DNA from: a virus
Virus record (IMG/VR): IMGVR_UViG_3300017971_000214
Coordinates: 32,001 to 96,000 of that record
DNA length: 64,000 nucleotides
Strand: one strand, 5' to 3'
Part shown: piece by piece, positions 40,880-64,000 of the stretch
How positions within the stretch are numbered: the stretch's first letter is position 1
Layout of the letters: each line of letters starts with the position of its first letter
The notes under the pieces: model-generated
Told to the model about the DNA's origin: nothing
The model's input: the letters and a program-made list of their open reading frames with translations, nothing else
Databases searched by the model: none
Position numbers and translations under genes: made by a program

Positions 40880-43456
40880 GTGGGCGTTGATCTCGACAAA
40901 GGACTGGTTGCATCCATACTCCGCGATGGCCCCGACGCTTTGAAGGTCGTGAGGGAGTTCGGGATTGACGGCAGCCTTTTGGTAGATCCGGGGCGCAAGT
41001 TGTTCGACTTCGTCGAGCACTACTTTCGGCAGTATGGCCAGCTCCCCACGCCCGAGCTGCTGGTATCGAAGTTCGAGAAGGGCTCTCTTCCCGACGTGAA
41101 GGATCCAATTGAGTACTTCATCTTGGAGATCCGCGGCAGGAAACTGCAGAACGATCTGAAGGGCCGCGTCTACCCGTTCATGAAGATGCTCGAAGACGGG
41201 CAGAAACCCTTCGAGGCTCTAGACGAACTGGACATTCTGATCCGTGGTCTGCGTCAGGCTCACGAGATCACACGGGCTCAAGCCGAGAGCGTGCCGAAGC
41301 TGTGGCCTGAGGTGATGGATCTCTACGACCGGGTGAAGGGCGGGGAGAAGGGCATTCTCACCCCGTGGCCTACGGTGAACAACGAGACGCTAGGCTTCTG
41401 GCCTGAAGACCTCGCGCTGTTCGCGGCCCGGCTCGGCATAGGCAAGTGCGTAGCCGAGGATACGGAGATCGTAGACCCAGAGACAGGTGTTCCGCATACC
41501 ATCCACGAGGTGTGTGAGAGAGAAGATCTCAGGAAGGTGTTCACTTGGAGCAAGGAGCGGGGGGTTCACGCTGCGCGGATAACGGCCAAGGTAGACACGG
41601 GAGTAAAACCCTGTCTGCGGTTCCGCTTTGCGTCTGGTCGCGAGGTCACTGTGACGCCGGAGCACCCTTTTCTGACCTCAGCTGGTTGGGAACCAGCGGC
41701 GGACTTGGTTGTGGGGGCTTCTGTGGGCCTTCCGGCTCGGGTGCCGTTCCCCGAGAGCCCCGAGCAGCTGCTTCCAGAGGCGGTTGATCTCCTCGCACTC
41801 CTGTTGGCGGAAGGGAGCTATAGCGGGAAGCACGTTGGGGTCTCTAGCGATGATGACGTATTGTTGTCGATCGCTAGTCGAGCGTCTGACGCTTTCGGAG
41901 TAGATCTGAAGTACCGCTCGGGAGTCGACTACGATTTCGTCCGGCGGGAGAAGTCAGGCCCCAACCATGTGAGGACGTTTCTACGCTCTCACGATATGGA
42001 CGGGAAGAAGGCCGTAGACAAGATTATCCCAGAAGCCGTGTTTGGTCTCCCTTCCGATCAGCTAGCTCGGTTCCTCGGGCTGTTCTGGATGTGTGACGGG
42101 TACGTAGATGGCACCGGTCCTGGCGTGACGCTTGCCTCCGAGAAGATGGTTCAGCAGCTCCAACATCTTCTCCTCCGTTTTGGGATTCATAGTAGTGTTG
42201 ATCCAAAGAAGGCTACGTGTGAGGGGCGTGTATTCAACGCGTGGCGTCTCAGGGTGTACGCTTCCTCTTGGCCTGTGTTCTTGGCCGCTATTCCGCTGTG
42301 GGGTAGCAAGCGAGAGCGGTTGGAGGAGTTGGAGAGCCTGGACCGAAATCCTAACATCGGCTTCCCCAGGGTTTCAGGGGAGTTCAAGGCGCATCTTTTG
42401 GGATTGGTACGGAAGAGAGAAAACCATGGGAAGCTGAAACAGGTTGGCGAGCGCCTTGGCTGGTCCAGCTATTTCATGTTCCGCAGCCTGTTCGGGAAGG
42501 GCGACACTTTGTTGCTTCGGCGCTTCGCGGTGTTCTGCGAAGTATTTGGGCTGGAAAGGGAGTTCGGTTGGTTGTGGGACAGTGAGATTTTCTGGGACTC
42601 TGTGGAGTCTATCGAGGACGTCGGCCCTACCAAGATCTATGACCTCACTGTCGAGCCTTCTGCGTGTTTCTTGGCCAATGACGTGATCGTTCACAACACG
42701 TGGGCGGCGGCCATCATCGCTCATCACGCGTGGGCCGTGGGCGGCCACAAGGTGCTGTTCGGAACGACGGAGATCTCCAAGATTCGCATCGCCATGCGCT
42801 TCGCGGCGATCCACTTCAAACTCCCCTACCGTGAGATTCGCCTCGGGAAGCTCGACGCCTTCAACGAGAAGAAGATGCGCGATGGCATCAAAGACATCAT
42901 GGATGCCGAGGGGCTGTACGTCATCGGCGGGGACTTCGACTTCCGCGTGGAGTCCTACGAGAACGCCGTCGAAGAGGTGGCGCCCGAGCTGTCGATCTTG
43001 GACGGAGCCTATTTGCTCAAGACGCAGGGGCAAACCAGGACCGAGCGCGCTGCCAACGCCTTCGACGAGCTGAAGCGAATTTGCAAGCGCACGAAGTGCC
43101 CGAGCATCGTCACCATGCAGTTCAACCGCGAGGTGAAGGCAGGCTCCAAGGCCACGGCAGACGCCGGCAACATCGCGCTGACCGACGTCGCTGGCTGGAA
43201 CGCCGATCTCGCCTACGGACTGATCCAGTCCGAGGACATGAAGAAGGACCGCCGTATGATCTTCAAGCCCTTGAAGGTCCGTGAAGGCGAGGGCGAGGAG
43301 TTCGAGGTCAATTGGGACATCGACAAGGTGAACTTCACCGAGCTGCCGAAGCTGGGTGGCGGCGGGGGTGGAGCCGATGATGATGACGATCCGTTCGGTG
43401 CTGGAGTGAACGGCACGGGCGCCAGCTCGGGCGGTTCGGACGAGGTGCCTTTCTAG
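40880..43456 (+). CDS. dnaB: DnaB-like replicative helicase containing an intein
   Basis: AARLGIGK|T Walker A, ILDGAYL, MQFNRE, LKVREG. Confidence 0.88.
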   Translation: MGVDLDKGLVASILRDGPDALKVVREFGIDGSLLVDPGRKLFDFVEHYFRQYGQLPTPELLVSKFEKGSLPDVKDPIEYFILEIRGRKLQNDLKGRVYPFMKMLEDGQKPFEALDELDILIRGLRQAHEITRAQAESVPKLWPEVMDLYDRVKGGEKGILTPWPTVNNETLGFWPEDLALFAARLGIGKCVAEDTEIVDPETGVPHTIHEVCEREDLRKVFTWSKERGVHAARITAKVDTGVKPCLRFRFASGREVTVTPEHPFLTSAGWEPAADLVVGASVGLPARVPFPESPEQLLPEAVDLLALLLAEGSYSGKHVGVSSDDDVLLSIASRASDAFGVDLKYRSGVDYDFVRREKSGPNHVRTFLRSHDMDGKKAVDKIIPEAVFGLPSDQLARFLGLFWMCDGYVDGTGPGVTLASEKMVQQLQHLLLRFGIHSSVDPKKATCEGRVFNAWRLRVYASSWPVFLAAIPLWGSKRERLEELESLDRNPNIGFPRVSGEFKAHLLGLVRKRENHGKLKQVGERLGWSSYFMFRSLFGKGDTLLLRRFAVFCEVFGLEREFGWLWDSEIFWDSVESIEDVGPTKIYDLTVEPSACFLANDVIVHNTWAAAIIAHHAWAVGGHKVLFGTTEISKIRIAMRFAAIHFKLPYREIRLGKLDAFNEKKMRDGIKDIMDAEGLYVIGGDFDFRVESYENAVEEVAPELSILDGAYLLKTQGQTRTERAANAFDELKRICKRTKCPSIVTMQFNREVKAGSKATADAGNIALTDVAGWNADLAYGLIQSEDMKKDRRMIFKPLKVREGEGEEFEVNWDIDKVNFTELPKLGGGGGGADDDDDPFGAGVNGTGASSGGSDEVPF
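41447..42697 (+). mobile_element. intein (417 aa) with LAGLIDADG endonuclease, in the DnaB Walker A
   Basis: CVAEDT start, VTPEHPF, LLLAEG, FLGLFWMCDG, IYDLTVE..IVHN end, +1 Thr. Confidence 0.92.
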
Positions 43457-48290: not shown

Positions 48291-48641
48291 ATGTCGAAGA
48301 AGAACGCGGTGCAGCCCACCGTCGTAACGGTGAGGCGTCAGTTTCTGGAGGGTGGGGAGCCCGCGAGCCTTCCTGAAGAGAAGACCGAAGTGATCGAAGT
48401 CCACCGCTTCGTCGTCGAACCCGCGAAGGTCCAGGTCGGTCGGGGCCTTACCTTGAACATGGGCAACTACGAGTCTGCTCGCTTGGATGTGGGCATCGAG
48501 GTCCCCTGCTACGTCGAAGAAGTCGACTCTGCTTACGAGTGGGCGCGCCGCTGGGTCGAGAAGCGTATCGGTGAGGAGCACAAGTCGATCAAGGGGCACG
48601 TTGACAAGAAGAAGTCTGGGTCGGAGGAGAACCCGTTCTGA
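48291..48641 (+). CDS. conserved phage hypothetical protein
   Basis: TLNMGNYESARLDV motif; ends EENPF. Confidence 0.7.
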   Translation: MSKKNAVQPTVVTVRRQFLEGGEPASLPEEKTEVIEVHRFVVEPAKVQVGRGLTLNMGNYESARLDVGIEVPCYVEEVDSAYEWARRWVEKRIGEEHKSIKGHVDKKKSGSEENPF

Positions 48642-50881
48642 TGGCCAAGAAGAAGGACAACAAGCCCGGCGTGGAACTCGCGTCCTCGTTGGACAAGCTG
48701 CTTGCCAGCAAGGCCATGGCATCCATCCACAAGGATCACGGGGACGCCATCTTCATGAAGGCGTCCGAGCATGACTCGGCTATCCCTCGGATCCCAACGG
48801 GGGTTTTCAGGATGGACTACGCCACCGGAGGCGGCCTCCCCGTGGGGCGCGTCACGGTGATTTGGGGGCACAAGTCGAGTGCCAAGACGACCACCTATCT
48901 GAAGACCATCGCCAACGCGCAGAAGATGTGCGCGAGCTGCTGGCAATTTCAGGAAACGTGCAACTGCGGGAACTACAGGGATCCCGTCATCGCGTTCCTC
49001 GATGTGGAGGGAACACTCGACCTTCGGTGGGCCAAGGTGCTCGGTGTAGATCTGGACCGGATGCTCTACTCCAAACCGGAGTACGCCGAGCAGACGCTCG
49101 ACATTGCGGAGGCCATCATACGCAACGGTGCCGACATCATGGTCATCGACTCGCTCGCGTTCCTAGCGCCTGCAGCAGAGATCATGAAGTCGACGAGCGA
49201 GGACACAGTGGGACTGCAAGCGCGCCAGCTCGGCAAGGGCACGCGCAAGTTCGTTGCGGCCGTCAACACTGTGTCCAACGCTCGTGGTATCGGCCCCACG
49301 TTGTTCTTCACCAATCAGGTTCGCATGAAGGTTGGTGTCATGTTCGGCTGCTTCCCCTACCAGGCTCCCGTCCTACTGGCAGACGGAACCAAACGAAGTA
49401 TCGGTCAGATCGTCAATCAGAAGCAGCCTGTGGAGGTACTGAGTTGGAATGCACACGAAAAGAGATTTGAGCCCAAGCGGGTGGTCCGCTGGTGGAAGCA
49501 AGGGGTTGATGTAGACGAATGCTGTCTGTCGGACAACGACATCGGGGCGCTACGTCAGGAGTACCGCACTCTTGTTGTGTCGTATCCGGATGGCAGCGGT
49601 CACACCAAGATCACCGCTACTCCGAATCATGAGATATCGACGCCGCGTGGGTTCGTTTCTGCCGACACGCTCGACTTGGACGACGAGGTATATTGCCGAC
49701 ATGAGCGTGTGGTATTCAGCCACGACTTGGAGCAGTTGATCTTCGGCTCGCTGCTCGGCGACGGGTCGATCAGGAAATCGGGAAGGCATACTTCGTACTT
49801 CCGAGAGTCCCACGCTCAGAAAGAGCGCCAGTACTTGATGTGGAAGCGCGAATGCTTTGGCGACTTGGTTCGCGAGAGCCTGACCGACAGAGACGACGAG
49901 AGATCAGAGGTAGGTTTCGAGACGAGGGCTCTGTCTTCCTTTTCTCAGTACAAGCGGTTGTTCTACGGGGAGTCCGGTAGGTACAAGCGGATTCCTCGGT
50001 CGTGGCCGATGGTTCTTTCTCCGTTTGCTCTGGCCATTTGGTATCAGGACGATGGTTGGCTGGCAGACGAAGGCGGCACGAGAAAGCGCAACGTGATTTG
50101 CCTCCACGAGACTACGCCGGATGAAAAGGATCACATCAAGAAATTGATCGAGGGGCTATTCGGACTGCAGGTCGCAGTGTGCTCCGGCGGCCATCGCACT
50201 GATATCCAGTTCAACGGGGAGGTAGCGGACAAATTCGAGAAGATAGTGGCTGGTTGGGTTCATCCCAGCATGTCGCACAAGCTGCGGACAACTGCCGGTG
50301 TGGGTCAGCTGCTGCCTCGACTCGAATTTGGGTGGTGCACTGAGGTTGTTGCTCATCCGTGTCCTGTTGTTGAGATCCGAAGGTCTATGCGAGAGGGATC
50401 TTCTGGAGTCCGGTACAACTTGGAGGTGGAGGATAACGCCACCTACGTTGTTGGAGATGCCATCGTCCACAATTCGCCCGAGACGCAGCCCGGCGGTCTG
50501 TCGACCGGCTTTGCTTCTTCGCTGGAGATCAAGACCAGGGCGGGCAAGTTCGAGATGGACGAGGTGCTAGGAAAGCCTCTTACTGCGGGCTTCGCGTTTC
50601 GCGTCGAGAAGAACAAGGCCGGCGTGCCTAAGATGGAGGGCGACTTCAAGCTGCTGCTGATGAGCACGGAGCACCGGCGTGTTGGGGATGCGGTCAACGA
50701 GCCCTTCATGGTCGACATGGCGCAGAAGGTCGGGCTCGTGGAAGGCGGCGGTTCCTCGTGGAAGGCGCTCGGAGAGAAGTTCAAGTCCAAGACCGCCATC
50801 GAGGAAGCAATGATCCAGAGCCCCGACTTCTACCTGCGCATGCACAGCGCTTTGATGGCTGTGCTGCTGTCGGATGACTAG
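48641..50881 (+). CDS. recA: RecA-like recombinase containing an intein
   Basis: IPTG..D...GGLP.GR, FLDVEG, VIDSLA, NQVRMKVGVMFG|SPETQPGG. Confidence 0.9.
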   Translation: MAKKKDNKPGVELASSLDKLLASKAMASIHKDHGDAIFMKASEHDSAIPRIPTGVFRMDYATGGGLPVGRVTVIWGHKSSAKTTTYLKTIANAQKMCASCWQFQETCNCGNYRDPVIAFLDVEGTLDLRWAKVLGVDLDRMLYSKPEYAEQTLDIAEAIIRNGADIMVIDSLAFLAPAAEIMKSTSEDTVGLQARQLGKGTRKFVAAVNTVSNARGIGPTLFFTNQVRMKVGVMFGCFPYQAPVLLADGTKRSIGQIVNQKQPVEVLSWNAHEKRFEPKRVVRWWKQGVDVDECCLSDNDIGALRQEYRTLVVSYPDGSGHTKITATPNHEISTPRGFVSADTLDLDDEVYCRHERVVFSHDLEQLIFGSLLGDGSIRKSGRHTSYFRESHAQKERQYLMWKRECFGDLVRESLTDRDDERSEVGFETRALSSFSQYKRLFYGESGRYKRIPRSWPMVLSPFALAIWYQDDGWLADEGGTRKRNVICLHETTPDEKDHIKKLIEGLFGLQVAVCSGGHRTDIQFNGEVADKFEKIVAGWVHPSMSHKLRTTAGVGQLLPRLEFGWCTEVVAHPCPVVEIRRSMREGSSGVRYNLEVEDNATYVVGDAIVHNSPETQPGGLSTGFASSLEIKTRAGKFEMDEVLGKPLTAGFAFRVEKNKAGVPKMEGDFKLLLMSTEHRRVGDAVNEPFMVDMAQKVGLVEGGGSSWKALGEKFKSKTAIEEAMIQSPDFYLRMHSALMAVLLSDD
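49349..50473 (+). mobile_element. intein (375 aa) with LAGLIDADG endonuclease, at the RecA MFG/SPET site
   Basis: CFPYQAPV start, ATPNH, GSLLGDG, IWYQDDG, YNLEVE..IVHN end, +1 Ser. Confidence 0.92.
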
Positions 50882-53943: not shown

Positions 53944-54245
53944 ATGTCGTCGCGATCTCAGGAAATGTATCAGCCAAGATCGAGTTTGCGAGGACCGGAG
54001 GGGGAACCCCCGTCTGCACGTTCCAGATGGCTTCCGACCGCCACACCCGCGACACGGTCATTACCGCCTGGGTGAAAGTCAACGCTTACGGGGCGGGGCT
54101 CGTTGAGGCTTGCCGCCAGAGGCTCGCCAAGGGAAGATACGTGGTGGTGGAAGGCGAGCTGATGAACCGGGACGGTAGGATGGGCGAGTTGCTAGAAGTC
54201 CGGGCTCGGCGGATCGACTTCCCGAACAACAACAACGAGAGTTGA
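53940..54245 (+). CDS. ssb: OB-fold single-stranded DNA-binding protein lacking the acidic tail
   Basis: N.V.ISGN..T.GG..V.F.MA..W.KV.A.G..L.KG..VVVEG.L. Confidence 0.85.
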   Translation: MNVVAISGNVSAKIEFARTGGGTPVCTFQMASDRHTRDTVITAWVKVNAYGAGLVEACRQRLAKGRYVVVEGELMNRDGRMGELLEVRARRIDFPNNNNES

Positions 54246-54261
54246 AGGAGCGCGGGGAACT

Positions 54262-55203
54262 ATGGGAGCCAAGGCAGCTGCCGTGGTGAGTATCGGTGTC
54301 GGTTCGAAAAAGTGGGCGGACAGGCTAAAGAAGCGGTCCAAGGAGATCGTAGAGCAGATGGATGTCGCGTATGTGGAGCTGGCGGACCTTCTTCACCTTG
54401 CGCACGACATTCCGGTGGACAACGACCCCAAGGGGCCTCCGACCTACACTCGGTGGGGATACACGACGTTTGGCTCCTACGCGGAGGGTGCTCTTGGGTT
54501 GCAGCGCCGAAAGGCGGAGCGCCTGCGTAGCATTGGGAGGCTTCTCAATATCGAGCTGGCCGGGCTGGACCCGGCGTTGAAGAAGCGCCTCACGGAGCTA
54601 GGTTGGACCAAGCTGACCGAGCTTGTTCGGATTCTCATGAACAAGCACGACCGCAAGACGGTCGAGAAGTGGGTCGAGTTCGCTGAAGAGAACAGCTACG
54701 AGCAGCTTTGGCGTGCTGTGGGGAAGGCCCTGGACAAGATGGGTGTCAAGAACGGAGAGGTCGTGGACGACGTGACGGAGAGCGTGGTCGACGAGGACGC
54801 TGAAGAAGAGGACGAGAGTGTTTTGGAGGACAGCGGCGAGGACGACGGATTCTACGGGGCCGGAAAGATGACGGTGAAGGACGCTGCCGACGCGCTACCT
54901 TCTCCTGCGCGAACGAAGATGTTCAACTTCATGTGCATCGACGAGCAGATCGATGTGGTGGCTGCGGCTTTGCAGCGCGCCGAGGAGATGGGCGCTGACA
55001 ACCTCAGCAAGTCCTCTCGTCTCGCGCTAATTTGCACGGACTTTCTCGCGACCAACACGTTCGGTAAGCCGCACGACCCCAAGTCTCGCGTTGCGTTTCT
55101 CAAGAAGCTGGAGAATTTCCTTGGGTGTAAGATCATAGCGGTCAACAACAAGGCCGATGTGTTCTACGGCTTCAAGACGCTCAAGAAGATAGCGGACAAG
55201 TGA
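54262..55203 (+). CDS. hypothetical DNA-binding protein, possibly partition-associated
   Basis: Y..WGY.TF..Y....LG...R.A..L helix motif; close to the ParB-like gene. Confidence 0.55.
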   Translation: MGAKAAAVVSIGVGSKKWADRLKKRSKEIVEQMDVAYVELADLLHLAHDIPVDNDPKGPPTYTRWGYTTFGSYAEGALGLQRRKAERLRSIGRLLNIELAGLDPALKKRLTELGWTKLTELVRILMNKHDRKTVEKWVEFAEENSYEQLWRAVGKALDKMGVKNGEVVDDVTESVVDEDAEEEDESVLEDSGEDDGFYGAGKMTVKDAADALPSPARTKMFNFMCIDEQIDVVAAALQRAEEMGADNLSKSSRLALICTDFLATNTFGKPHDPKSRVAFLKKLENFLGCKIIAVNNKADVFYGFKTLKKIADK

Positions 55204-55204
55204 C

Positions 55205-55426
55205 ATGCTGACTGTATCGACACCAGTGATCCAGAACGAGCTGGAGACGGCGAAGAAGATCATCGAGAAGTGGCAGGAGAAGATCGAGATGCTGCCAGGC
55301 GTGAATGTTCCTGCGGGGGACCCGGCGGCTTTCGACAACTACATGCGCGAGTTCATCGGCGAGCTGCAGGTTGTCTCTGGCAAGTGCGACACGTTGGCTG
55401 AAGCGCTTTCGGGGTCGTTGCCGTGA
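55205..55426 (+). CDS. hypothetical protein
   Basis: Coupled on both sides. Confidence 0.6.
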   Translation: MLTVSTPVIQNELETAKKIIEKWQEKIEMLPGVNVPAGDPAAFDNYMREFIGELQVVSGKCDTLAEALSGSLP

Positions 55427-56244
55427 CTGAGGCTGCTGAACAAGAAGGGTCGGTTGACGTCAACATCGCGGACTCCGCGACGATCGACGTGGACGACATG
55501 GAGCCGGTCGCTTGGAATCCCAACGAGATGAACTCCGAGGAGTTCGACATGCTCGTTGAGAACATCAAGGAGGTGGGCTTCATCGACTACCCACAGGTCG
55601 TCCCGATGGTGGACGGCTCCTACCGGATCATCGGTGGGGCACATCGGTGGCAGGCCGCCAAGGTGCTGGGGCTGAAGAAGATCCCTTGCGTCCTGTTGTC
55701 TCACGAGCGCTGGACGGACGAGGACTTGCAGAAGTTCGTCACGGTCCGGCTCAACACGCTGCACGGTCGCATCAACCCCGAGAAGATGGTGGCGCTTCAT
55801 CGGGAGATGGCCGCCAAGTACGGCGACAAGGCGATGCGTCGGATGTTCGCCTACACGGACAAGGCGGGGTGGCAGAAGATCGTCAAGCAGATGAAGAAGG
55901 GCATGAAGTCAGCCGGCATGCCTAAGCAGGCGCAGGACAAGTTCGAGGAAGCCACGAAGGACGCCAAGACCGTCAACGACTTGGGGCACGTCTTGAACCA
56001 CCTGTTCAACGAGTACGGCGACACGTTGGAGTACTCGTTCATGGTGTTCGACTACGGAGGCAAGGAACACCTGTACATTGCCATGAGCAAGAAGACCAAG
56101 CGGGTGATGGATCGGGTGATGGAGGTCTGCCGGAGCTGGGGTCGCGATGTGAACGAGGTCGTCGGGGAGGTCACCGAAGAGTGGCTAAAGAAAGCCGAGC
56201 AGATCGAGGACGAAGAGATCGACGCAGAGATAGACGCCAGCTGA
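55423..56244 (+). CDS. ParB/Srx N-terminal domain protein
   Basis: WNPN.M..L.ENI..VGF..P..YRIIGGAHRW.AA..LG...IPCV. Confidence 0.82.
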   Translation: MTEAAEQEGSVDVNIADSATIDVDDMEPVAWNPNEMNSEEFDMLVENIKEVGFIDYPQVVPMVDGSYRIIGGAHRWQAAKVLGLKKIPCVLLSHERWTDEDLQKFVTVRLNTLHGRINPEKMVALHREMAAKYGDKAMRRMFAYTDKAGWQKIVKQMKKGMKSAGMPKQAQDKFEEATKDAKTVNDLGHVLNHLFNEYGDTLEYSFMVFDYGGKEHLYIAMSKKTKRVMDRVMEVCRSWGRDVNEVVGEVTEEWLKKAEQIEDEEIDAEIDAS

Positions 56245-56270
56245 CCGGATCTCCTGTTGTGTGGTAGAAG

Positions 56271-57035
56271 ATGGGAGTCCCCCGGAATCCGCTAGCTAGG
56301 AGATCTCCCATGCGCTCTCTACAGGAGAACATCGCCGTTGCTCGGGCTCTGATGGAGTCGAACGCCATCCGAACCCCCTCGGTTCGCGTCGCTGACGCCT
56401 GGCGCAAGACCATCCGAATGGGCGATCAGTACTTGGAACTTCTGACACAGGCGGCGCAGGCGGCTTCGAAGGCGGCGAAGGCCGATGACCCGGTGGCCTC
56501 CAGGCGTGCCAACTCGGACGTCTCGGGGGTCATGACGAAGTTCGTTCCTCTGACCAACAAGTTCTACTCGTCGCACAAGGATGCCATGCTTTTCATGGAC
56601 AAGCTGGGCGAGCAGTTGGACCTTCCGACGTACCGTCCGTGGCCCAAGAAATTGAAGTCCCCTGCTAACCTCACGTCGATGTCGGACGATGAGATCAGGA
56701 AGCAGTTGGAGAAGGCCGCGAGGAACGCCATCGGCGGGTGGCGAGACATGTTGGAGAAGGGCGCCTCTGCGTCCCGGATGTTCCGGGAGGCCGCCAAGAG
56801 CAAGGAGACGCCGAGCAACGAGTTTGTATCGGAGATCATCCAGGACGGGCTGAACTTCAGGGACTCGGTGGGCATCAACGTCTACGCACGGACGAACGGG
56901 ATCATCCGAAGGGTGGTCGAGCTGTCCAACCGCGCTTGGGAGGCCATGGCGCTGGAAGCACGGTTGGACGAGGGCTCGATGCTCCGGTGGAACCCGCCGT
57001 GGCGTGGTGAGATTGGCGACGCCGAGGTCATCTGA
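56271..57035 (+). CDS. helical hypothetical protein (start uncertain)
   Basis: ORF coupled by TGATG to the giant gene. Confidence 0.6.
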   Translation: MGVPRNPLARRSPMRSLQENIAVARALMESNAIRTPSVRVADAWRKTIRMGDQYLELLTQAAQAASKAAKADDPVASRRANSDVSGVMTKFVPLTNKFYSSHKDAMLFMDKLGEQLDLPTYRPWPKKLKSPANLTSMSDDEIRKQLEKAARNAIGGWRDMLEKGASASRMFREAAKSKETPSNEFVSEIIQDGLNFRDSVGINVYARTNGIIRRVVELSNRAWEAMALEARLDEGSMLRWNPPWRGEIGDAEVI

Positions 57036-60000
57036 TGGACGAGATCTTCTTCGCGCGCCCCGCGGGACTGGCTCTGTGGGAGGACGCCGCAGGCGTCCTG
57101 CTCGAAAGCACCGGCTTCGTCAATGAGGTCAAGATCATCGGAGTCAAGACGGACGACTCCGGCAACAAGAAGATCTTGGTCTGGAAGAACTACAAGTCCG
57201 GCCCCAAGCCCGCGTGGATTTCGTCGAAGAACCTCCACAAGCACGCGAGCGACCTGATGGACCCCCCAGAGGGGACCACGGATGAGTACCCCCCGGTGGG
57301 GGACATCTCCGACCCTGCGAGCTTCACCGGAAGCACCACCGACATCAAGCCCCTGCCAGGCAAGGAGACAGTTCCCGAGATGGGGGCCGACGTGTGGGTG
57401 CCTTCCGTTGCGCTGAAGAACCTTGCCAAGAAGGTCAAGGCCATGGGCCTGAAGCCTCAGGACACCTTCCAGAAGGCGGTTGCTGCCGGCGAGCCCATCC
57501 CGAAGGAGATCCCGAAGGCTGTCGGCCTGTCCGGGCTCCCCAAGGCGGACGAGCCCGCCAAGGCCCCTGAGACGCCTCCAGAGGCGCCGAAGGAGCCCGA
57601 GGCCCCCGAGCCCCCGGCAGAGCCAGAAGCGCCTCCAGAGGCCCCTGCGGAGCCCGCAAAGCCTGCTCTCGTGATGACTCCGGACGAGGTGGCGCAGGCC
57701 GCCAAGGCTGGGGACATCGACAAGTTGGATCAGAACGCTGAGAAGTTGGGGATCAAGGGGCGCGAGGAGCTGAAGAAGGCGGCCCTCGGCGCCCATGACT
57801 CGGGGGACTACGAGAAGGCGGCCAAGCTCGCTGGGGTGTTGGCGAAGGCATTCGAGAAGACGAAGGGTGCTAGCCACGCGTTCACCAAGGCGTGGGCGGA
57901 CAAGGCGCAGGAGTTTGCGAAGAAGGCGAGCGGGGAAGAGCCGGCGCCTCCAGAGCCCGAGAAGCCCAAGGCTGCGGAGCCTGGGGGGCCGATTGGGGAC
58001 GATGCTATTCAGGCTGCGTCTGTTTCCGGTGATTGGAGCCAGGTCGTAGCGAGTGCCAAGGAGCTTACTCCAGAGCAGATCAATACCGTCACCAACGCGT
58101 TCAACGCCGCATCGGCTGGAGACGATCACAAGAAGGCCGCAAGCGTGGCCGAGGCCATGGCGGAGATCCAGCAGGCGCGTGGGGAGGATATTTCGGCCAA
58201 GTTCTGGAAGGAGGACGCCGAAGAGGCCAAGAAGCTCGCGGGCCTACCCGTCGAGATGTCGGTTCCTCAGGTCAAAGACGCTGTTGAGGCCGGAGACATC
58301 GCCACGCTGAAGCAGAACGCCACGAAGCTCGGGGCCGCGCGAAAGTTCGTGGCCGCTGACATGGAGTTCGCCATTCAGGACGGCAACTGGAGCAAGGCGT
58401 CCGAGCTGGCTTCGATTCTCTCGGACTCCTACAAGGAGCACGGCATTCCGAGCATGGTTGAGTCCTATGCTCAGGCCGCGGAGAGCTACAAGAAGAAGGC
58501 AGAGGATCAGGCGGCGGCGAAGGATGCGGTCAGCGACGTCCAGGTAGACGACGCCCTCAGCTCCGGCAACTACGATGCGATCGTGGATAACGCCACCAAG
58601 CTGACGCCTCACCAGAAGAGCAAGTTCTGCGGGCACGTGGCGGACATGATGGTCGCGGCCGAGAAGGACCCCACCGCGGAGAAGGCGCAGAAGGTGGCGG
58701 AGGGGTGTGGTGCGCTGAAGAAGACCTACGAGGCGCTGGGCGAGGACACCATGGCGGAAGCCATGGGGGTCGAAGCGGAGAAGTGGGAGACCAAAGCAAA
58801 GGAGGCGCAGCCTTCGCCGATGGACGACTCAGAGATCGATCAAGCGGTCTCTGACGGCAACTACCAGAAGCTCATCAACAACGCCACGAAGCTGAGCGCG
58901 GACCAGATCGACAACGTAAAGGACGCGCACGAGAAGCTGTTCGATGTGGGCGAGTACGAAAAGGCGTCTGATCTAGCTAAGGCGATCTCTGAGGTAGAGA
59001 CCCAGCTGAAGGATGACTACGCCGCCACGCAGTGGGCGAAGAAGGCCCAGCAGCTCGGACCAGGATTCGCGCAGAACGAGTTGAGCAGCGCCATCGCTTC
59101 GGGGGACACCGAGGCGATCAAGAAAAACGCGGACTCGTTGGGGCTGGACGAGAAGTACCTCATCGCGAATGGAGCAGAGGAAGCGGCAGAAGCGGGCGAG
59201 TACGAGAAGGCGGCGAACCTTCTCACGGCTCTCGCGGAGGTTCAGGAGCAGAAGGGTGAGGAGAAGTCCGCGCAGAAGCTGAAGGCCAAGGCCAAGAACT
59301 TCCAGGCGCAGGCCGATCACGGGGAGGCGTTCTCCGAAGCGCTGGCGCAGGGCGACGCCGACTACATGGTGGCTAACGCCGAGAAGTTGTCGGCGCAACA
59401 GCGCGGCACCCTCGGGGAAGCTCTCACGAAGCTGGAGTCCGACCAGGATTGGGGCAACGCCGCGAAGATCGCCGAGGCCATTGCCGAGTCGTACAAGCAC
59501 GAGGACTCCCCCGCGGCCCCGTTCTGGGAGAACGAATCGAAGAAGTACGCCAAGCTCGCGGGGAAGGAAGTCTCTTCGCCCGTGCCAGAGCCGTTCAACG
59601 CTGCGGGGAATCTGACGCCTATGGCTGTTAACGCAGCCTTGGACAAGGGGGACTTGGACTTCCTAGCTGCGCACGCCGGCAAGTTGCAGGACAAGTCAGG
59701 AGTGCTGGAGGCATACACCGACGCGCAGTCTTTTGGGGACTGGGGGAAAGCCGCCAAGATAGCTGGGGTCATGGTGGCGCACTATGAGTCCAAGCTCGCT
59801 GGAGAGGAGCTGCCCGAGTCGCTGGCGGACACGTACCAGGCGGTTTTGGGAAACTGGCAGGGCGAGCAGGCTTTCGCGGCGGAGAAGATGGGGAAGGAAG
59901 CTCCTCCATCGGCGAAGGCTGCTGCTGAAGCGCAGGGAGAGTCCGCCTACACCAAGTACGGCTACGTCAAGGCAGCCGTGGCGGACAAGGCTGCGCAGAA

Positions 60001-63000
60001 CGGCGACTTCGACTTTCTGATGGAGAACGCCTCGAAGATGGGGAAGGCGTCTTTGGGGAAGGTGAGGGACGGGTTCGAGGTATCTCTGCACACAGGCAAG
60101 CCGGGCGATGCCGCCAAGTTCGCGGCGGTCATGGTGGCCCACTACCAGTTCAAGAAGAACGGCAAGAAGGCTACGTACTGGAAGGAGATCCAAGACGAGT
60201 ACGCAGCGGAAGCGGGAGGCGCAGAGGCGGGCGAGGTTCCTTCCAACGCTGACGTCGACAAGCTGGCGGAGCAGTACTCGGCCGCGCACAAGGCCAACGA
60301 CTTCGTACAGGCTGCAAACGTCGCCAAGAAGCTGTCGGGAGCCCTAGCGGCCAAGGGCGACGCGGCAGGAGCGGAGCTGTGGGGGAAGCTCTCGGACGAT
60401 GTCGGCAAGAACGTGATCGCCTCGGCTGTTTCCCCTGACGCAGAGGAGTCGAAGAAGATCGGCGACGAGCTGTTCGATGCCTCTTTGTCCATCGGGAAGG
60501 TAACCGAACTGGCAGAGAAGGATCTGTCCGACTCTCAGGTGATGAAGCTGGAAGAGGTATTCCAGCAGGCTTTGGAGGACGAGGACCACGGGAAGGCGGC
60601 GCAGGTTGCGGAGGCGCTATCTAAGATCCACAAGGACAAGGGCAATGAAGCGACGGCGGAGAAGTGGGCCGAGTCTGCGGCTTACCACAAGGATCTAGCG
60701 GAGAAGAAGCCGGAGGATCCGTACAAGCCCAAGGCCGCCGAGCCGGCCCCCACTCTGGAGGAGATGGAAGCGAGCGGCGTTCTGGTTCTTCCGTGGAACG
60801 CCAAGCCTGCGAAGGGTAAGGAGCACCCGACCGCGGCACAAGCCGCTTCAGCGCAGGGCACCTTGGGCCTGGCGGTGGACGAGTTCGTGCATCCCGTGTC
60901 CAAGGAGGTGTGGAAGGTCGTGGGGATCATCGAGAATGAGTACATCGACCCCAACGACGGCATTGTCTACGACAAGAAGACCGGAAAGCCCATCAAGGGC
61001 AAGGGCAAGTTCAACATCGTGGAGACGGGGAAGTCTGTCGAAGGGGAGCCCGCAGAAGCCGCTCCTTCAGGCCCCACGGAAAACTTCCCCATGCCCGAGC
61101 CGGCCCCTCCGCCTGCCCCGCCTACGCCAGTTCCGTCTTCGGCTAAGGATGCTGTGGACGTCATCAAGGCGACGCCGCTACCGAAGGGTGTTCCGAGCCC
61201 CGAAGACCTCACGTTGGAGGGGAGCGCCAATCACCTTGGAGGCGCTGGAACGAAGTACACGTACACGGACAAGGACGGGAACAAGTGGCTTCACAAGCAT
61301 GCCTACGCCAAGGGCAGCAGCAGTGCGGCAAAGCCCTACGCCATGATGGCGCAGCAAGTGTGGTCCCAGGTAGCACTTCGCGCGCGCGGGGAGCATCTAC
61401 CCATTGCGGCGATGGAGGTATCAGGCCCTGGTGGCAAGAAGGCCCTCGGTACGTTGCAGCCGCTGGTGGAACGAGACGCCAAGCAGCCTGACCTTCGCGG
61501 GGTGGATCCAAAGACGCTGTCCGACGAGGACCGTTCGACCATCGCCAAGGAGCATGTGCTCGACTGGCTGATGAGTCAGCACGACAGCCACGCGGCCAAC
61601 TTCATCCGTCGAGCTGAGGATGGGAAGATCTTCTCGGTCGACAAGGAGCAGGGCTTTCGCTTCTTCGGCTCGGACAAGCTGAGCATCGACTACGCGCCGA
61701 ACTCCGATCTCTACGGCGAGAACCCGCCCTTCTACAACAAGGTTTGGAGCGGCTGGGTCAAGGGTGACTACGACATGGACCCGAAGGGACTTCAGGAGAC
61801 GGTCGAAAAGATCGATGCCATCCCCGTGAAGGAATACATCGATATGATGAAGCCCTACGCGGAGACCATGTGGCCGGGGAAGCCGGACAAGCAGCTTGAG
61901 TTCTTGAAGGCCGCGCGGCGCCGCAAGCTCGACATCCGGAAGGACTTCGAGAGGTTCTTCACCGAGCTGTATCGGAAGAAGACCGGAGACGACGGCAATT
62001 TCACCTTCGACGCCGGATGGTCCGGAGACAAGCCGAGTGAAGAAGGACCCAAGGTCATCAAGCACACTGTCTCGGCCAAGGACTACATCAAGGTCTTTGC
62101 GTCCGAGCACGACACCACGATGAAGTGGGAGGAGTTCGACGACCCTCAGACAGGTAAGGACCCCTCCAAGCTCACGGTGAAGGTAGCCAACAGCGACACC
62201 AACGGGCAGAAGAAGCTGGAGAAGATGCTGGCGAAGACGGGGGTGTCCCCTCTGAACACTACGCCAGTCAAGGGCGGCTACTACACGATGCTCTTCGTGA
62301 ACGCCGAGGAGTTCAACAACGCCACGGTGGACTACGAGGAGATCCAGCAGCCGGTCAAGCCGGGCGACATCGCTCCGACGCCCAAGACCCCCCGTTACTT
62401 CCCAGACGACTACGAGCACGCGGTGGCCTCTTCGAACACCGAAGAGATCAAGAACCTTCAGAACATCTCGACGGGACGTGGAGGGAAGCGCTACGAGTCG
62501 GATGGTACAGCGGTGGAGGGAAGTTCTCTGCGGGCACGCCGTTACGAGGACAAGAACGGATCGTACTTCGGTTTCCAGTTCAAGCTGCGCCCGGAGATCT
62601 GGGAAGCTCTGCGGGACTCGGGGACTGGCGAGCCCTCCACGCTAAAGTTCAAGCAGTCGGAGTACATCGAGGCAAAGGACGCCTACGTCGAAACGGGCTC
62701 GACCATCGACACCGCCAATGCTCGACGTTGGGCGGTGGGATCCTCGGACATCCATTTGGTTCCTGGCAGTGAGGATAACAAGTCCTCCGACAAGTACTCC
62801 TACGTGGGCATGGTTCAGGCGAAGGTTCGCCCCAAGCCAGGACAGTCACCTTACGATGCGCTGGCGGAGTTGTTGGAGGAGATGAAGCCTGGGTTGGCGA
62901 AGGACGTGCTTCGGACCGCGACGCCCGAGGAGAAGGAGATCTGGAAGCTCAGCCAACTCCTGTGGGCGCGGGCACCGCAGATGGCAGACAAGCTGGAGGA

Positions 63001-63769
63001 GAAGGATCGGACCGTCAAGAACCTTCGCAAGAAGCTGAAGTCCAAGGGTGTGTCTCAGGAAGAGATCGAAAACACTGAGCTGCGTGAGGTGCTTCCGGGG
63101 TTTTCGACACATGTGGAGAAGGGTCGCTGGAAGAAGCTGCGCGAGAAGGGCGCACGTTTCGTTTTCCACGGCGCCGACCTGGGGTCGATCGTTTCCATCG
63201 TCCAGCGCGGGGCGCTGGGCATCAATGAGCGCAACGCGGCCGGCGTTCCCAAGACTGGCGTATCGTACAGCCAGGACGTGAAGACGGGTTCAGGCGATGG
63301 CGTGTTGGGTTACGTGGCGCACTCGGCCCAAGGCGGGAAGAGCCCTGGGTCCTACAGCTTCAGTAAGCAGGTTCAGGTCATCTTCGACCCGCGCGAGCTG
63401 GAACGCCTCGACGCCTACATGCATTACGGCGATTGCTACGGCACTTGCACGCCTTACAACAACGGCACGAAGTCGGGGTCGGTGTGGAACAAGAGGCAGT
63501 CTTTGGAGAAGCGTGTAGAGGGGCTGGCTAGCCAGGGCAGCTCGCACGAGATCTCGTTCCGCCGAGGCATCTCTCCCACAAGCATCCTTCGGCTCAACGT
63601 AGCGAACGAGACGACGCGGAAGAAGGTCATCAAAGACCTTCGAGCTGCAGGCATCGAGGAAGTGAACGGGCTGCCGGTGGAAGATCTCGTCGTCGTGGGC
63701 GGCTCCAACGAGGAGATCTACAAGAAGTACGTCGAGCCCATGATGACGGAGAGGCGAAATGCAGCCTAA
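57035..63769 (+). CDS. giant 2244-aa protein: helical repeats + HipA/PI3K-like kinase + putative ADP-ribosyltransferase-like C-terminus
   Basis: At least 9 A..GD...NA.KL repeats; LGGAG..KW.HK..DWLMSQHDSHAANF..VDKEQ; FVFHG..Y..HEI. Confidence 0.7.
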   Translation: MDEIFFARPAGLALWEDAAGVLLESTGFVNEVKIIGVKTDDSGNKKILVWKNYKSGPKPAWISSKNLHKHASDLMDPPEGTTDEYPPVGDISDPASFTGSTTDIKPLPGKETVPEMGADVWVPSVALKNLAKKVKAMGLKPQDTFQKAVAAGEPIPKEIPKAVGLSGLPKADEPAKAPETPPEAPKEPEAPEPPAEPEAPPEAPAEPAKPALVMTPDEVAQAAKAGDIDKLDQNAEKLGIKGREELKKAALGAHDSGDYEKAAKLAGVLAKAFEKTKGASHAFTKAWADKAQEFAKKASGEEPAPPEPEKPKAAEPGGPIGDDAIQAASVSGDWSQVVASAKELTPEQINTVTNAFNAASAGDDHKKAASVAEAMAEIQQARGEDISAKFWKEDAEEAKKLAGLPVEMSVPQVKDAVEAGDIATLKQNATKLGAARKFVAADMEFAIQDGNWSKASELASILSDSYKEHGIPSMVESYAQAAESYKKKAEDQAAAKDAVSDVQVDDALSSGNYDAIVDNATKLTPHQKSKFCGHVADMMVAAEKDPTAEKAQKVAEGCGALKKTYEALGEDTMAEAMGVEAEKWETKAKEAQPSPMDDSEIDQAVSDGNYQKLINNATKLSADQIDNVKDAHEKLFDVGEYEKASDLAKAISEVETQLKDDYAATQWAKKAQQLGPGFAQNELSSAIASGDTEAIKKNADSLGLDEKYLIANGAEEAAEAGEYEKAANLLTALAEVQEQKGEEKSAQKLKAKAKNFQAQADHGEAFSEALAQGDADYMVANAEKLSAQQRGTLGEALTKLESDQDWGNAAKIAEAIAESYKHEDSPAAPFWENESKKYAKLAGKEVSSPVPEPFNAAGNLTPMAVNAALDKGDLDFLAAHAGKLQDKSGVLEAYTDAQSFGDWGKAAKIAGVMVAHYESKLAGEELPESLADTYQAVLGNWQGEQAFAAEKMGKEAPPSAKAAAEAQGESAYTKYGYVKAAVADKAAQNGDFDFLMENASKMGKASLGKVRDGFEVSLHTGKPGDAAKFAAVMVAHYQFKKNGKKATYWKEIQDEYAAEAGGAEAGEVPSNADVDKLAEQYSAAHKANDFVQAANVAKKLSGALAAKGDAAGAELWGKLSDDVGKNVIASAVSPDAEESKKIGDELFDASLSIGKVTELAEKDLSDSQVMKLEEVFQQALEDEDHGKAAQVAEALSKIHKDKGNEATAEKWAESAAYHKDLAEKKPEDPYKPKAAEPAPTLEEMEASGVLVLPWNAKPAKGKEHPTAAQAASAQGTLGLAVDEFVHPVSKEVWKVVGIIENEYIDPNDGIVYDKKTGKPIKGKGKFNIVETGKSVEGEPAEAAPSGPTENFPMPEPAPPPAPPTPVPSSAKDAVDVIKATPLPKGVPSPEDLTLEGSANHLGGAGTKYTYTDKDGNKWLHKHAYAKGSSSAAKPYAMMAQQVWSQVALRARGEHLPIAAMEVSGPGGKKALGTLQPLVERDAKQPDLRGVDPKTLSDEDRSTIAKEHVLDWLMSQHDSHAANFIRRAEDGKIFSVDKEQGFRFFGSDKLSIDYAPNSDLYGENPPFYNKVWSGWVKGDYDMDPKGLQETVEKIDAIPVKEYIDMMKPYAETMWPGKPDKQLEFLKAARRRKLDIRKDFERFFTELYRKKTGDDGNFTFDAGWSGDKPSEEGPKVIKHTVSAKDYIKVFASEHDTTMKWEEFDDPQTGKDPSKLTVKVANSDTNGQKKLEKMLAKTGVSPLNTTPVKGGYYTMLFVNAEEFNNATVDYEEIQQPVKPGDIAPTPKTPRYFPDDYEHAVASSNTEEIKNLQNISTGRGGKRYESDGTAVEGSSLRARRYEDKNGSYFGFQFKLRPEIWEALRDSGTGEPSTLKFKQSEYIEAKDAYVETGSTIDTANARRWAVGSSDIHLVPGSEDNKSSDKYSYVGMVQAKVRPKPGQSPYDALAELLEEMKPGLAKDVLRTATPEEKEIWKLSQLLWARAPQMADKLEEKDRTVKNLRKKLKSKGVSQEEIENTELREVLPGFSTHVEKGRWKKLREKGARFVFHGADLGSIVSIVQRGALGINERNAAGVPKTGVSYSQDVKTGSGDGVLGYVAHSAQGGKSPGSYSFSKQVQVIFDPRELERLDAYMHYGDCYGTCTPYNNGTKSGSVWNKRQSLEKRVEGLASQGSSHEISFRRGISPTSILRLNVANETTRKKVIKDLRAAGIEEVNGLPVEDLVVVGGSNEEIYKKYVEPMMTERRNAA

Positions 63770-64000
63770 GTTCAGGTTCCGGGACGTCTACGTGGTTACC
63801 GCTCCTCCGGGGGACTACAACGGCATCGACATCGCCGTTGGGGTGCGGGTGGTGGAGGGCCACGTCAACCCCGGTACTAAGCAGAAGGAGAGGTCCATCG
63901 AGTGGCTAGCTGCGGACGGCAGCTTCCAGGGGGGCCACACTCTTTTCGGGGACGTGGTCAAGGCGGAGAACGACATCACCGAGGTGCAGGACACCAGCAT
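63759..64000 (+). CDS. partial hypothetical protein (runs off the window)
   Basis: SD GAGG, ATG 63759, open to the window end (MQPKFRFRDVYVV...). Confidence 0.6.
   Translation, partial: MQPKFRFRDVYVVTAPPGDYNGIDIAVGVRVVEGHVNPGTKQKERSIEWLAADGSFQGGHTLFGDVVKAENDITEVQDTS

Follow-up and report, generated by a model that had tools for sequence, protein, structure and literature searches.

Within a 64,000-nucleotide stretch of an uncultured phage genome (positions 32,001 to 96,000 of IMG/VR record IMGVR_UViG_3300017971_000214; hereafter called the window, to which coordinates refer unless a locus is named), we have examined the gene for a 2244-amino-acid (aa) protein, the last 865 aa of which join a domain with a predicted protein-kinase fold to a domain with a predicted ADP-ribosyltransferase (ART) fold that is closest to DarT. 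This pairing of a kinase with an ART recurs in many other phages and prophages and probably modifies host molecules during infection. Our reading, to which we assign a probability of roughly 0.6, is that the protein is a giant polyvalent phage effector, in which the kinase and the DarT-like ART modify host macromolecules for the takeover of the cell or for resistance to its defense; the enzyme activities, targets, packaging, and timing are all inferred.

The gene is a single uninterrupted frame on the plus strand (57035..63769; an ATG start, 2244 aa, and a stop codon) and is real and intact as given in a preliminary description made from the sequence alone. It overlaps a 254-aa open reading frame (ORF) upstream and a 142-aa ORF downstream. 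The ATG shares an A with the stop codon of the 254-aa ORF (TGATG), through which the two genes are translationally coupled, and GAGG sits 7 nucleotides (nt) 5′ of the start codon. The GC content is ~0.61 throughout, and a scan of 54000-64000 for promoters and terminators gave nothing exceeding the shuffled controls. The record from which the window comes has 126,260 bases and a completeness rating of 68%. When the 2244-aa protein was searched against family models, there was no Pfam match at the cut-off (RecX_HTH1 scored 20.7 bits, with a cut-off of 26), the best E-value in PHROGs was 0.059, and NCBIfam returned nothing meaningful; nothing significant was found among the PDB sequences by phmmer and three profiles.

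The predicted kinase domain

The kinase-like domain (D1; aa 1386-1669, 61190..62041, on the plus strand as are all the features below) was assigned by an AlphaFold2 (AF2) model, by Foldseek, and by the conservation of residues. The model, which covers aa 1380-1689 and was built from an alignment of 20 sequences, has a predicted local distance difference test (pLDDT) score of 91.8 and a predicted template modeling (pTM) score of 0.87 and shows a bilobal fold with a full helical C-lobe. In the Foldseek comparison with the PDB, all of the 50 matches listed were protein kinases (E ~1e-5, probability 1.0), including p38, ERK2, Src, CK1, RYK, and granulovirus PK-1. The motifs noticed earlier, namely a Gly loop, a Lys, DWL..HDSHAAN, and VDKE, are all located at the positions first given for them: G1402/G1403 (nt 61238), K1407, the beta-3 Lys K1421, and D1510-W1511 precede a catalytic loop, H1516-D1517-S-H1519-A-A-N1522, and this is followed by D1536-K-E-Q1539 (nt 61649). 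The positions of the conserved residues fit the strands and loops of the model and are interpreted here as the corresponding elements of a kinase.

The Gly loop, the Lys, the Asp...Asn, and the metal-binding Asp are kept in 86-95% of the 191-199 relatives aligned: G1403 in 180/191, K1407 in 167/192, K1421 in 179/192, D1517 in 190/199, N1522 in 171/199, and D1536 in 190/199, next to which K1537 (194/199) and Q1539 (190/199) are kept as well. The set K-D-N-D is intact in 52 of the 67 single-copy kinase domains; 14 of the other 15 have Gln for Asn, and one is an incomplete alignment row. Several related loci (numbered with L) encode tandem kinases (L017, L025-L029, L031-L035, L041, L043, and L064). 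In these tandem forms, the loop of the first copy reads D-x-K-x-x-N, as in Ser/Thr protein kinases, and that of the second copy D-x-H-x-x-N; K-D-N-D is intact in 14/14 first copies and 13/14 second copies.

As for the kind of kinase, neither PI3_PI4_kinase nor HipA_C nor Pkinase of Pfam matches the domain of the 2244-aa protein at E<=1. A Pfam scan of 22 relatives with only the kinase gave one PI3_PI4_kinase (E 4.4e-5) and one HipA_C (E 1.7e-4), however, and the sole named neighbor of the kinase in the ESM Atlas is a cluster with PI3_PI4_kinase (PF00454) in 38% of its members (score 0.94). On account of these matches, the fold matches, and the conserved residues, the "HipA/PI3K-like kinase core" of the preliminary description is a fair description at the level of fold and motif.

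The predicted ADP-ribosyltransferase domain

AF2, Foldseek, and conservation also assign the C-terminal domain (aa 2015-2244, 63077..63766) to the ART fold. The model of aa 1690-2244, built from an alignment of 21 sequences (pLDDT 87.6, pTM 0.79), has as its top PDB match the structure of E. coli C7 DarT1 with NAD+ (8baq; E 1.1e-3, probability 1.0, TMt 0.57), and the fold search thereby bears out the ART suspected from the sequence. Seven more rows were DarT or DarTG (7omu, 7omv, 7omx, 7yk3, 7omy, 7omw, and others), with DarT/DarTG structures at ranks 1, 2, 3, 6, 20, 25, and 31. Weaker matches to the ART fold were CteC, OspC3/CopC, and Tpt1, and the rows outside this fold were of low probability except for short matches to aspartokinase ACT domains. 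Among viral models, the C-terminal part matched uncharacterized proteins of phages and giant viruses together with 422L of the iridovirus IIV-6 and a granulovirus ORF30. A family of arthropod-virus proteins called "ORF28" has been described as related to DarT (PMC9503650); we presume that 422L and ORF30 belong to that DarT-related group.

The residues of the ART domain that are kept among the relatives are R2066 (139/143), S2077 (127/143), D2081 (139/143), R2124 (143/143), D2126 (139/143), D2133 (138/143), and E2172 (142/143), the last of which is found at the beginning of a modeled strand (model residue 483, strand 482-486). A spacing FHG..Y..E, reminiscent of ARTs of the H-Y-E class, had been pointed out before; F2044-H2045-G2046, Y2078, and E2172 are indeed present in the 2244-aa protein, but the His and the Tyr vary across relatives. 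At the position of H2045, His occurs in only 34 of 140 relatives (Asn in 25, Gln in 17, and Trp in 14), and Tyr occupies the position of Y2078 in only 36/143, so that H-Y-E is not the signature of the family and the class assignment fails family-wide; the conserved set is R2066, S2077, and E2172. In E. coli C7 DarT1, the residues R52, S63, and E152 have been reported (PMC11543638), and the spacing R2066-11-S2077-95-E2172 resembles that of DarT1, R52-11-S63-89-E152, which suggests that the residues correspond. DarT1 has an Asp two residues after the Arg, whereas Ala is found here (A2068). The likeness to DarT1 and DarT2 (8baq and 7omv) is confined to the level of structure, with no sequence match from Pfam DarT or the PDB profiles, and, while DarT is a toxin of ~200 aa, the ART examined here is fused to a kinase in a phage protein of 2244 aa.

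A DUF3626 protein of a Nodularia phage (BFVD A0A482MH46) was a weak structural match to the C-terminal model (probability 0.57). Given this match and the occurrence of DUF3626 together with the kinase, for example in L030:6467-10816, DUF3626 may itself be related to ARTs.

Distribution of the cassette and partners of the kinase

The last 865 aa, which we call the cassette, match 1604 metagenomic protein clusters (at 50% identity) with E<=1e-3, and 1003 and 231 clusters remain at E<=1e-10 and E<=1e-30, respectively. Most of the matches run end to end and lie at the C-terminus of proteins of ~1000-4400 aa. Among 37 database matches, there were no functional names save "phage minor head protein" on one relative with only the kinase. 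A set of 170 gathered proteins contained 137 with both domains, 22 with only the kinase, and 11 with only the ART, a composition subject to bias, since both domains were present in the query. The pairing can be judged with less bias from scans that used patterns of the kinase domain only: such a scan of IMG/VR found relatives encoded in 161 stretches, from which 80 loci were kept, while a scan for related loci with the single protein as the query gave 0 relatives. In 69 of the 80 viral loci, the kinase and the DarT-like ART are encoded in one ORF, and three of the other 11 run off the contig (L056, L058, and L074). The full cassette was also present in 13/19 loci of bacterial genomes; the contigs with kinase relatives are mostly from Bacillota, with Bacteroidota and a metagenome-assembled genome of Patescibacteria in addition. 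In L006 (6345-10199 and 9887-12820) and L018 (6227-11146 and 11067-13793), two overlapping ORFs stand in place of the single giant gene; the division may be genuine or may stem from a frameshift or a sequencing error.

Where the DarT-like domain is absent, a different ART family is often found beside the kinase. The kinase ORF of L021 carries a DRAT ART (Pfam, 32.8 bits), and L023 has the same architecture, the DRAT being known from the scan of L021 alone; that of L030 (6467-10816) carries ART-PolyVal and DUF3626; and, in that of L015, ADPrib_exo_Tox falls just under the cut-off (22.5 vs 23.4 bits). No other family was found by Pfam in the kinase ORFs of L041 and L042, and L044 resembles L042 in architecture; L024 is the last of the 11. 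Across the 22 proteins with only the kinase, Pfam found ADPrib_exo_Tox and DUF3626 in three each, NUDIX in two, and single occurrences of DRAT, ART-PolyVal, Phage_min_cap2, InPase, PBECR5, and mCpol. As to cultured phages, megablast gave no match for the gene, tblastn matched the kinase part alone in 12 mycobacteriophage records, and by neither search was the whole cassette found in any record. One of these kinases belongs to gp54 of mycobacteriophage McProf, in which VG15, the kinase (~aa 471-731), and ADPrib_exo_Tox are joined in a protein encoded directly after the portal gene.

Five different ART families (DarT-like, ADPrib_exo_Tox, DRAT, ART-PolyVal, and DUF3626 proteins) and NUDIX thus recur as partners of the kinase, others being rare, which suggests that these partners share NAD+/ADP-ribose and not a target, and that the kinase may act on an ADP-ribose adduct or on the dinucleotide. 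In view of this persistent pairing with unrelated ART families (at least four Pfam families other than the DarT-like one), the two domains may perform one coupled chemistry: the kinase would be devoted to ADP-ribosylation, taking NAD+ or the ADP-ribose adduct as its substrate, for instance by phosphorylating the adduct so that host hydrolases can no longer remove it, or else priming the acceptor, and a two-step modification irreversible for the host would result; with a DarT-like partner, this modification would be made on nucleic acid. Other kinds of effector were rare (PBECR5, mCpol, and InPase, one each), and ARTs account for 14% of MuF toxins in general, according to the text of PMC5576092. 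We put this idea forward tentatively and consider it unlikely, because polyvalent proteins normally fuse independent effectors (as described in PMC5512222), the fold matches listed are protein kinases, and no ART at all is found in some kinase ORFs (L041, L042, L099, and L102). The 170 proteins, moreover, carry the bias of their two-domain query, and the literature searched offered no biochemical precedent.

The protein as a proposed phage effector and its possible route into the host

Having two effector-type domains, kinase-like and ART-fold, in one ORF, the protein has the hallmark of polyvalent proteins. Such proteins occur in phages and conjugative elements, count ARTs and kinases among their domain classes, and have been predicted to target host proteins at an early stage of infection (PMC5512222, Iyer et al. 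2017); the protein examined here resembles them in its very large size and in its combination of several effector-type enzyme domains. It differs in the domains themselves: the kinase described in the text of PMC5512222 is without the C-terminal kinase subdomain and occurs mainly in phages and prophages of Verrucomicrobia-Chlamydia and Bacteroidetes, whereas a full helical C-lobe is predicted here; and the ART described there is of the H-Y-D type (Tox-ART-HYD2), whereas the one here is DarT-like with conserved R/S/E. ART-PolyVal of Pfam does not match the 2244-aa protein. A kinase-ART pairing is not mentioned in the text of PMC5512222, though its supplementary architecture lists may differ.

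A second comparison is with the MuF polymorphic toxins of temperate phages, whose cargo has been proposed to be packaged in the head and delivered with DNA (PMC5576092, Jamet et al. 2017). Three of the six relatives tested (L037, L050, and L083) are MuF proteins, in which Phage_Mu_F stands N-terminal to the kinase-ART cassette as C-terminal cargo, while no Phage_Mu_F was found in the other three (L013, L016, and L045; 1364-2409 aa); annotations of PF04233 or PF06152 are also found on kinase-bearing relatives. The MuF fusions lend indirect support to the idea, put forward in the preliminary description, of a protein packaged in the virion or used early in takeover of the host. The 2244-aa protein differs from the MuF toxins in lacking the MuF domain and in belonging to a phage with T4-like head genes. 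The main text of PMC5576092 does not use the word "kinase."

Precedents for the two activities are also found separately. Alt of phage T4 is an ART that is packaged in the head and injected (PMC5512222, PMC9503650), which provides an example of an ART brought into the host by a phage whose head is of the T4 type; the T7 protein kinase is an example of a phage kinase phosphorylating host proteins. The 2244-aa protein is unlike either in joining two predicted activities in one polypeptide, and homology to neither is claimed; Alt belongs to the R-S-E ARTs of the Alt/VIP2 clade, and ADPrib_exo_Tox of Pfam does not match the 2244-aa protein.

We picture a giant polyvalent effector with the conserved 865-aa cassette as its working end, which would comprise a PI3K/HipA-like phosphotransferase, two adaptor domains, and a DarT-like ART. 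This end would spend ATP and NAD+ in modifying host macromolecules, leading to takeover of the cell or resistance to its defense, and a nucleic-acid target is plausible given the likeness of the ART to DarT. In place of the MuF domain of some shorter relatives, an anchor and spacer would be provided by the N-terminal domain together with the repeat array, which varies from 1 to 11 copies. The protein could be loaded into the T4-like head and delivered with DNA, as Alt is, or otherwise be made with the replication genes. Of these routes, delivery from the head seems to us the likeliest, with about an even chance, in view of the MuF fusions, the T4-type head genes, the location of the gene for McProf gp54 beside that for the portal, and the precedent of Alt (PMC5512222, PMC9503650).

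Several points weigh against this picture. With no sequence match in Pfam, PHROGs, NCBIfam, or the PDB, the assignments of both kinase and ART rest on predicted folds and motifs. The TMq values of the kinase model against PDB protein kinases in Foldseek are low (0.28-0.37), so the domain would be a distant member of the protein-kinase fold; the Pfam DarT model (PF14487) finds nothing at E<=10 in the whole 126-kb record, and the mapping of R2066/S2077/E2172 onto the residues of DarT, made by their spacing, is tentative. With regard to delivery, the 2244-aa protein has no MuF domain, by Pfam or by hhalign of its N-terminal alignment (probability 0.07-0.1), and its N-terminal domain is confined to its own family, so that nothing marks it as a general packaging signal. 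The giant gene, furthermore, sits within the replication module and not among the head genes in 21 loci, and this position keeps an intracellular, DNA-directed role alive.

That last point leads to another explanation, in which the protein is not packaged but is an enzyme of the replication module that marks DNA: the ART would ADP-ribosylate host DNA to stall host replication or phage DNA to protect it, and the kinase would serve DNA metabolism. The best structural match is DarT, and DarT enzymes modify bases of single-stranded DNA (PMC11543638). In the 21 related loci, the order of a ParB-like nuclease, the 254-aa ORF, the giant gene, and, further on, PolA is kept; genes for RecA, a Cas4-like exonuclease, primase, and helicases lie near, and the giant gene is translationally coupled to its neighbors. 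We regard this explanation as distinctly unlikely, however, since MuF head proteins bear the same cassette in some relatives, and since no PolA gene separates the giant gene and the 142-aa ORF from the portal region in L011 and L012, where dn251, a large intein-bearing ORF, and the portal gene come next. Protein-modifying ART folds (CteC and OspC3/CopC) are also among the matches, and similarity of fold does not fix the substrate. Nor was a Macro or NADAR domain found in the 126-kb record (68% complete), which means that the record also shows neither the DarG macrodomain nor a NADAR partner that would be expected of a DarTG-like pair or a reversal enzyme.

A mainly structural or scaffolding role, as an internal head protein, ejection protein, or ruler with vestigial enzyme-like folds, would suit the very large size, the long array with its copy number of 1-11, the Pro-rich linkers, and the lack of family-model matches, but is highly improbable, because 86-99% of relatives, down to ~30% identity, retain catalytic-type residues, which argues for selection on catalysis and against vestigial folds, and because it is the enzyme cassette that is conserved, the repeats being dispensable.

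In terms of novelty, polyvalent proteins with kinases and ARTs (PMC5512222) and MuF toxins with ARTs (PMC5576092) are already in print; the literature searched contained no account of a kinase-ART cassette or of DarT-like phage cargo in its main texts, and supplementary files may list such architectures. The cassette is large and widespread and has no covering model in Pfam, PHROGs, or NCBIfam. Its gene is a fixed feature of a lineage of uncultured phages whose head genes are T4-like, and the cassette also occurs as cargo of MuF head proteins in relatives on viral contigs and in genome contigs mainly of Bacillota. If active, the protein would place a DarT-type ART on the phage side of the conflict, DarT being so far known as a bacterial anti-phage toxin, and would define a kinase family that travels with ADP-ribosyltransferases.

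Remaining parts of the protein

Between the kinase and the ART lie two middle domains. The first (aa 1690-1800, 62102..62434) begins in the AF2 model with a small alpha/beta unit of ~75 residues. The Foldseek rows of aspartokinase regulatory (ACT) domains for the C-terminal model had probabilities of 0.96-0.98 over 67-68 columns; as a lead, the alpha/beta unit at 62102-62330 (aa 1690-1765) may be an ACT-like ligand-binding domain. The second (aa 1804-2014, 62444..63076) consists of a beta-rich part followed by a helical part and is found with the ART in the majority of relatives, stand-alone proteins of ~420 aa among them.

The N-terminal domain (aa 1-~160, 57035..57514), which was characterized by phmmer, a database search, and hhalign, is lineage-specific and carries the conserved motif LIDPPEGTxDExPxVGD. 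It was placed by phmmer at the N-terminus of 15 close relatives, and a database search with it returned four proteins, every one from the family of the 2244-aa protein. Several identities were tried for this domain and dropped: a divergent MuF domain was rejected on the hhalign comparison with MuF-type N-termini (probability 0.07-0.1), and kinship with the pre-kinase domain described below on a probability of 0.1; a general delivery module shared with other cargo was unsupported, as 4/4 of the database matches are within its own family; and a prohead-protease L-x-E site (LWE, aa 14-16) was discarded, the alignment showing no conservation of its Glu.

The Pro-rich linkers mentioned in the preliminary description are visible in the translation, one rich in Pro/Glu/Ala (aa ~165-212, 57527..57670) and a second before the kinase (aa ~1341-1385, 61055..61189). 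Between them lies an array of ~11 imperfect repeats (aa 213-1225, 57671..60709), which was found by motif search and a hidden Markov model (HMM), self-BLAST having given the identity match only. Nine clear units of 82-118 aa each (aa 213-1070) align with common motifs, in agreement with the at least nine repeats first noticed, but the end first given for the array, ~60220, is too short: an HMM of the nine detects two degenerate copies not used for building it, at aa 1072-1126 (independent E-value (iE) 9e-5) and aa 1158-1225 (iE 1.6e-12), so that the array has ~11 units and reaches ~60709. The helical, solenoid-type character first ascribed to the units is putative. Look-up of three repeat units in the ESM Atlas gave weak TPR leads (0.75-0.77, below the reliable range of the Atlas), and 0 matches to the repeats were found in the PDB. 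While the 2244-aa protein has 11 copies, close relatives have 1, 3, 5, and 10; judged from these sequences, the array behaves like an expandable spacer and the kinase-ART cassette like the constant part. The array is followed by a conserved pre-kinase domain (aa ~1235-1340, 60737..61054) that is common to 13 relatives.

Neighboring genes

Upstream of the giant gene are genes for an intein-bearing DnaB, a primase, an SF2 helicase, and a MerR-like protein, and also for an intein-bearing RecA/UvsX, a Cas4-like exonuclease, and a ParB-like nuclease. Downstream are those for a PolA-type polymerase, a VanW-like protein, an HNH endonuclease, and a 1477-aa ORF with two inteins, and later a portal protein, a gp21-like prohead protease (Peptidase_S77), and a capsid protein of the Gp23 family. 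The portal protein is at most 32.7% identical to that of any cultured phage.

The two ORFs that flank the giant gene have no family match, this being a Pfam and PHROG result for the 142-aa ORF. The 254-aa ORF (56271-57035) is kept immediately upstream of the giant gene in 11 related loci. The 142-aa ORF (63759-63998 in the window, continuing in L004:759-1187) shares 11 nt with the 3′ end of the giant gene and follows it in five related loci (L006, L007, L010, L011, and L012); such a position would befit a partner that confers immunity to a toxin cassette or regulates it.

Inteins with LAGLIDADG or HNH endonuclease domains were seen at 40880-43456 and 48641-50881 of the window and at L004:6799-11232; the genes interrupted are those of the DnaB-like helicase, the RecA/UvsX-like recombinase, and the 1477-aa ORF (two intein matches) just upstream of the portal gene. 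This last ORF sits where a large terminase would be and is a candidate for it. Lastly, the gene for the VanW-like protein (L004:4080-5318, genome 99080-100318; Pfam VanW, E 8.5e-38) lies between those of the DNA polymerase and the HNH endonuclease, and a VanW domain is unusual for the replication region of a phage.

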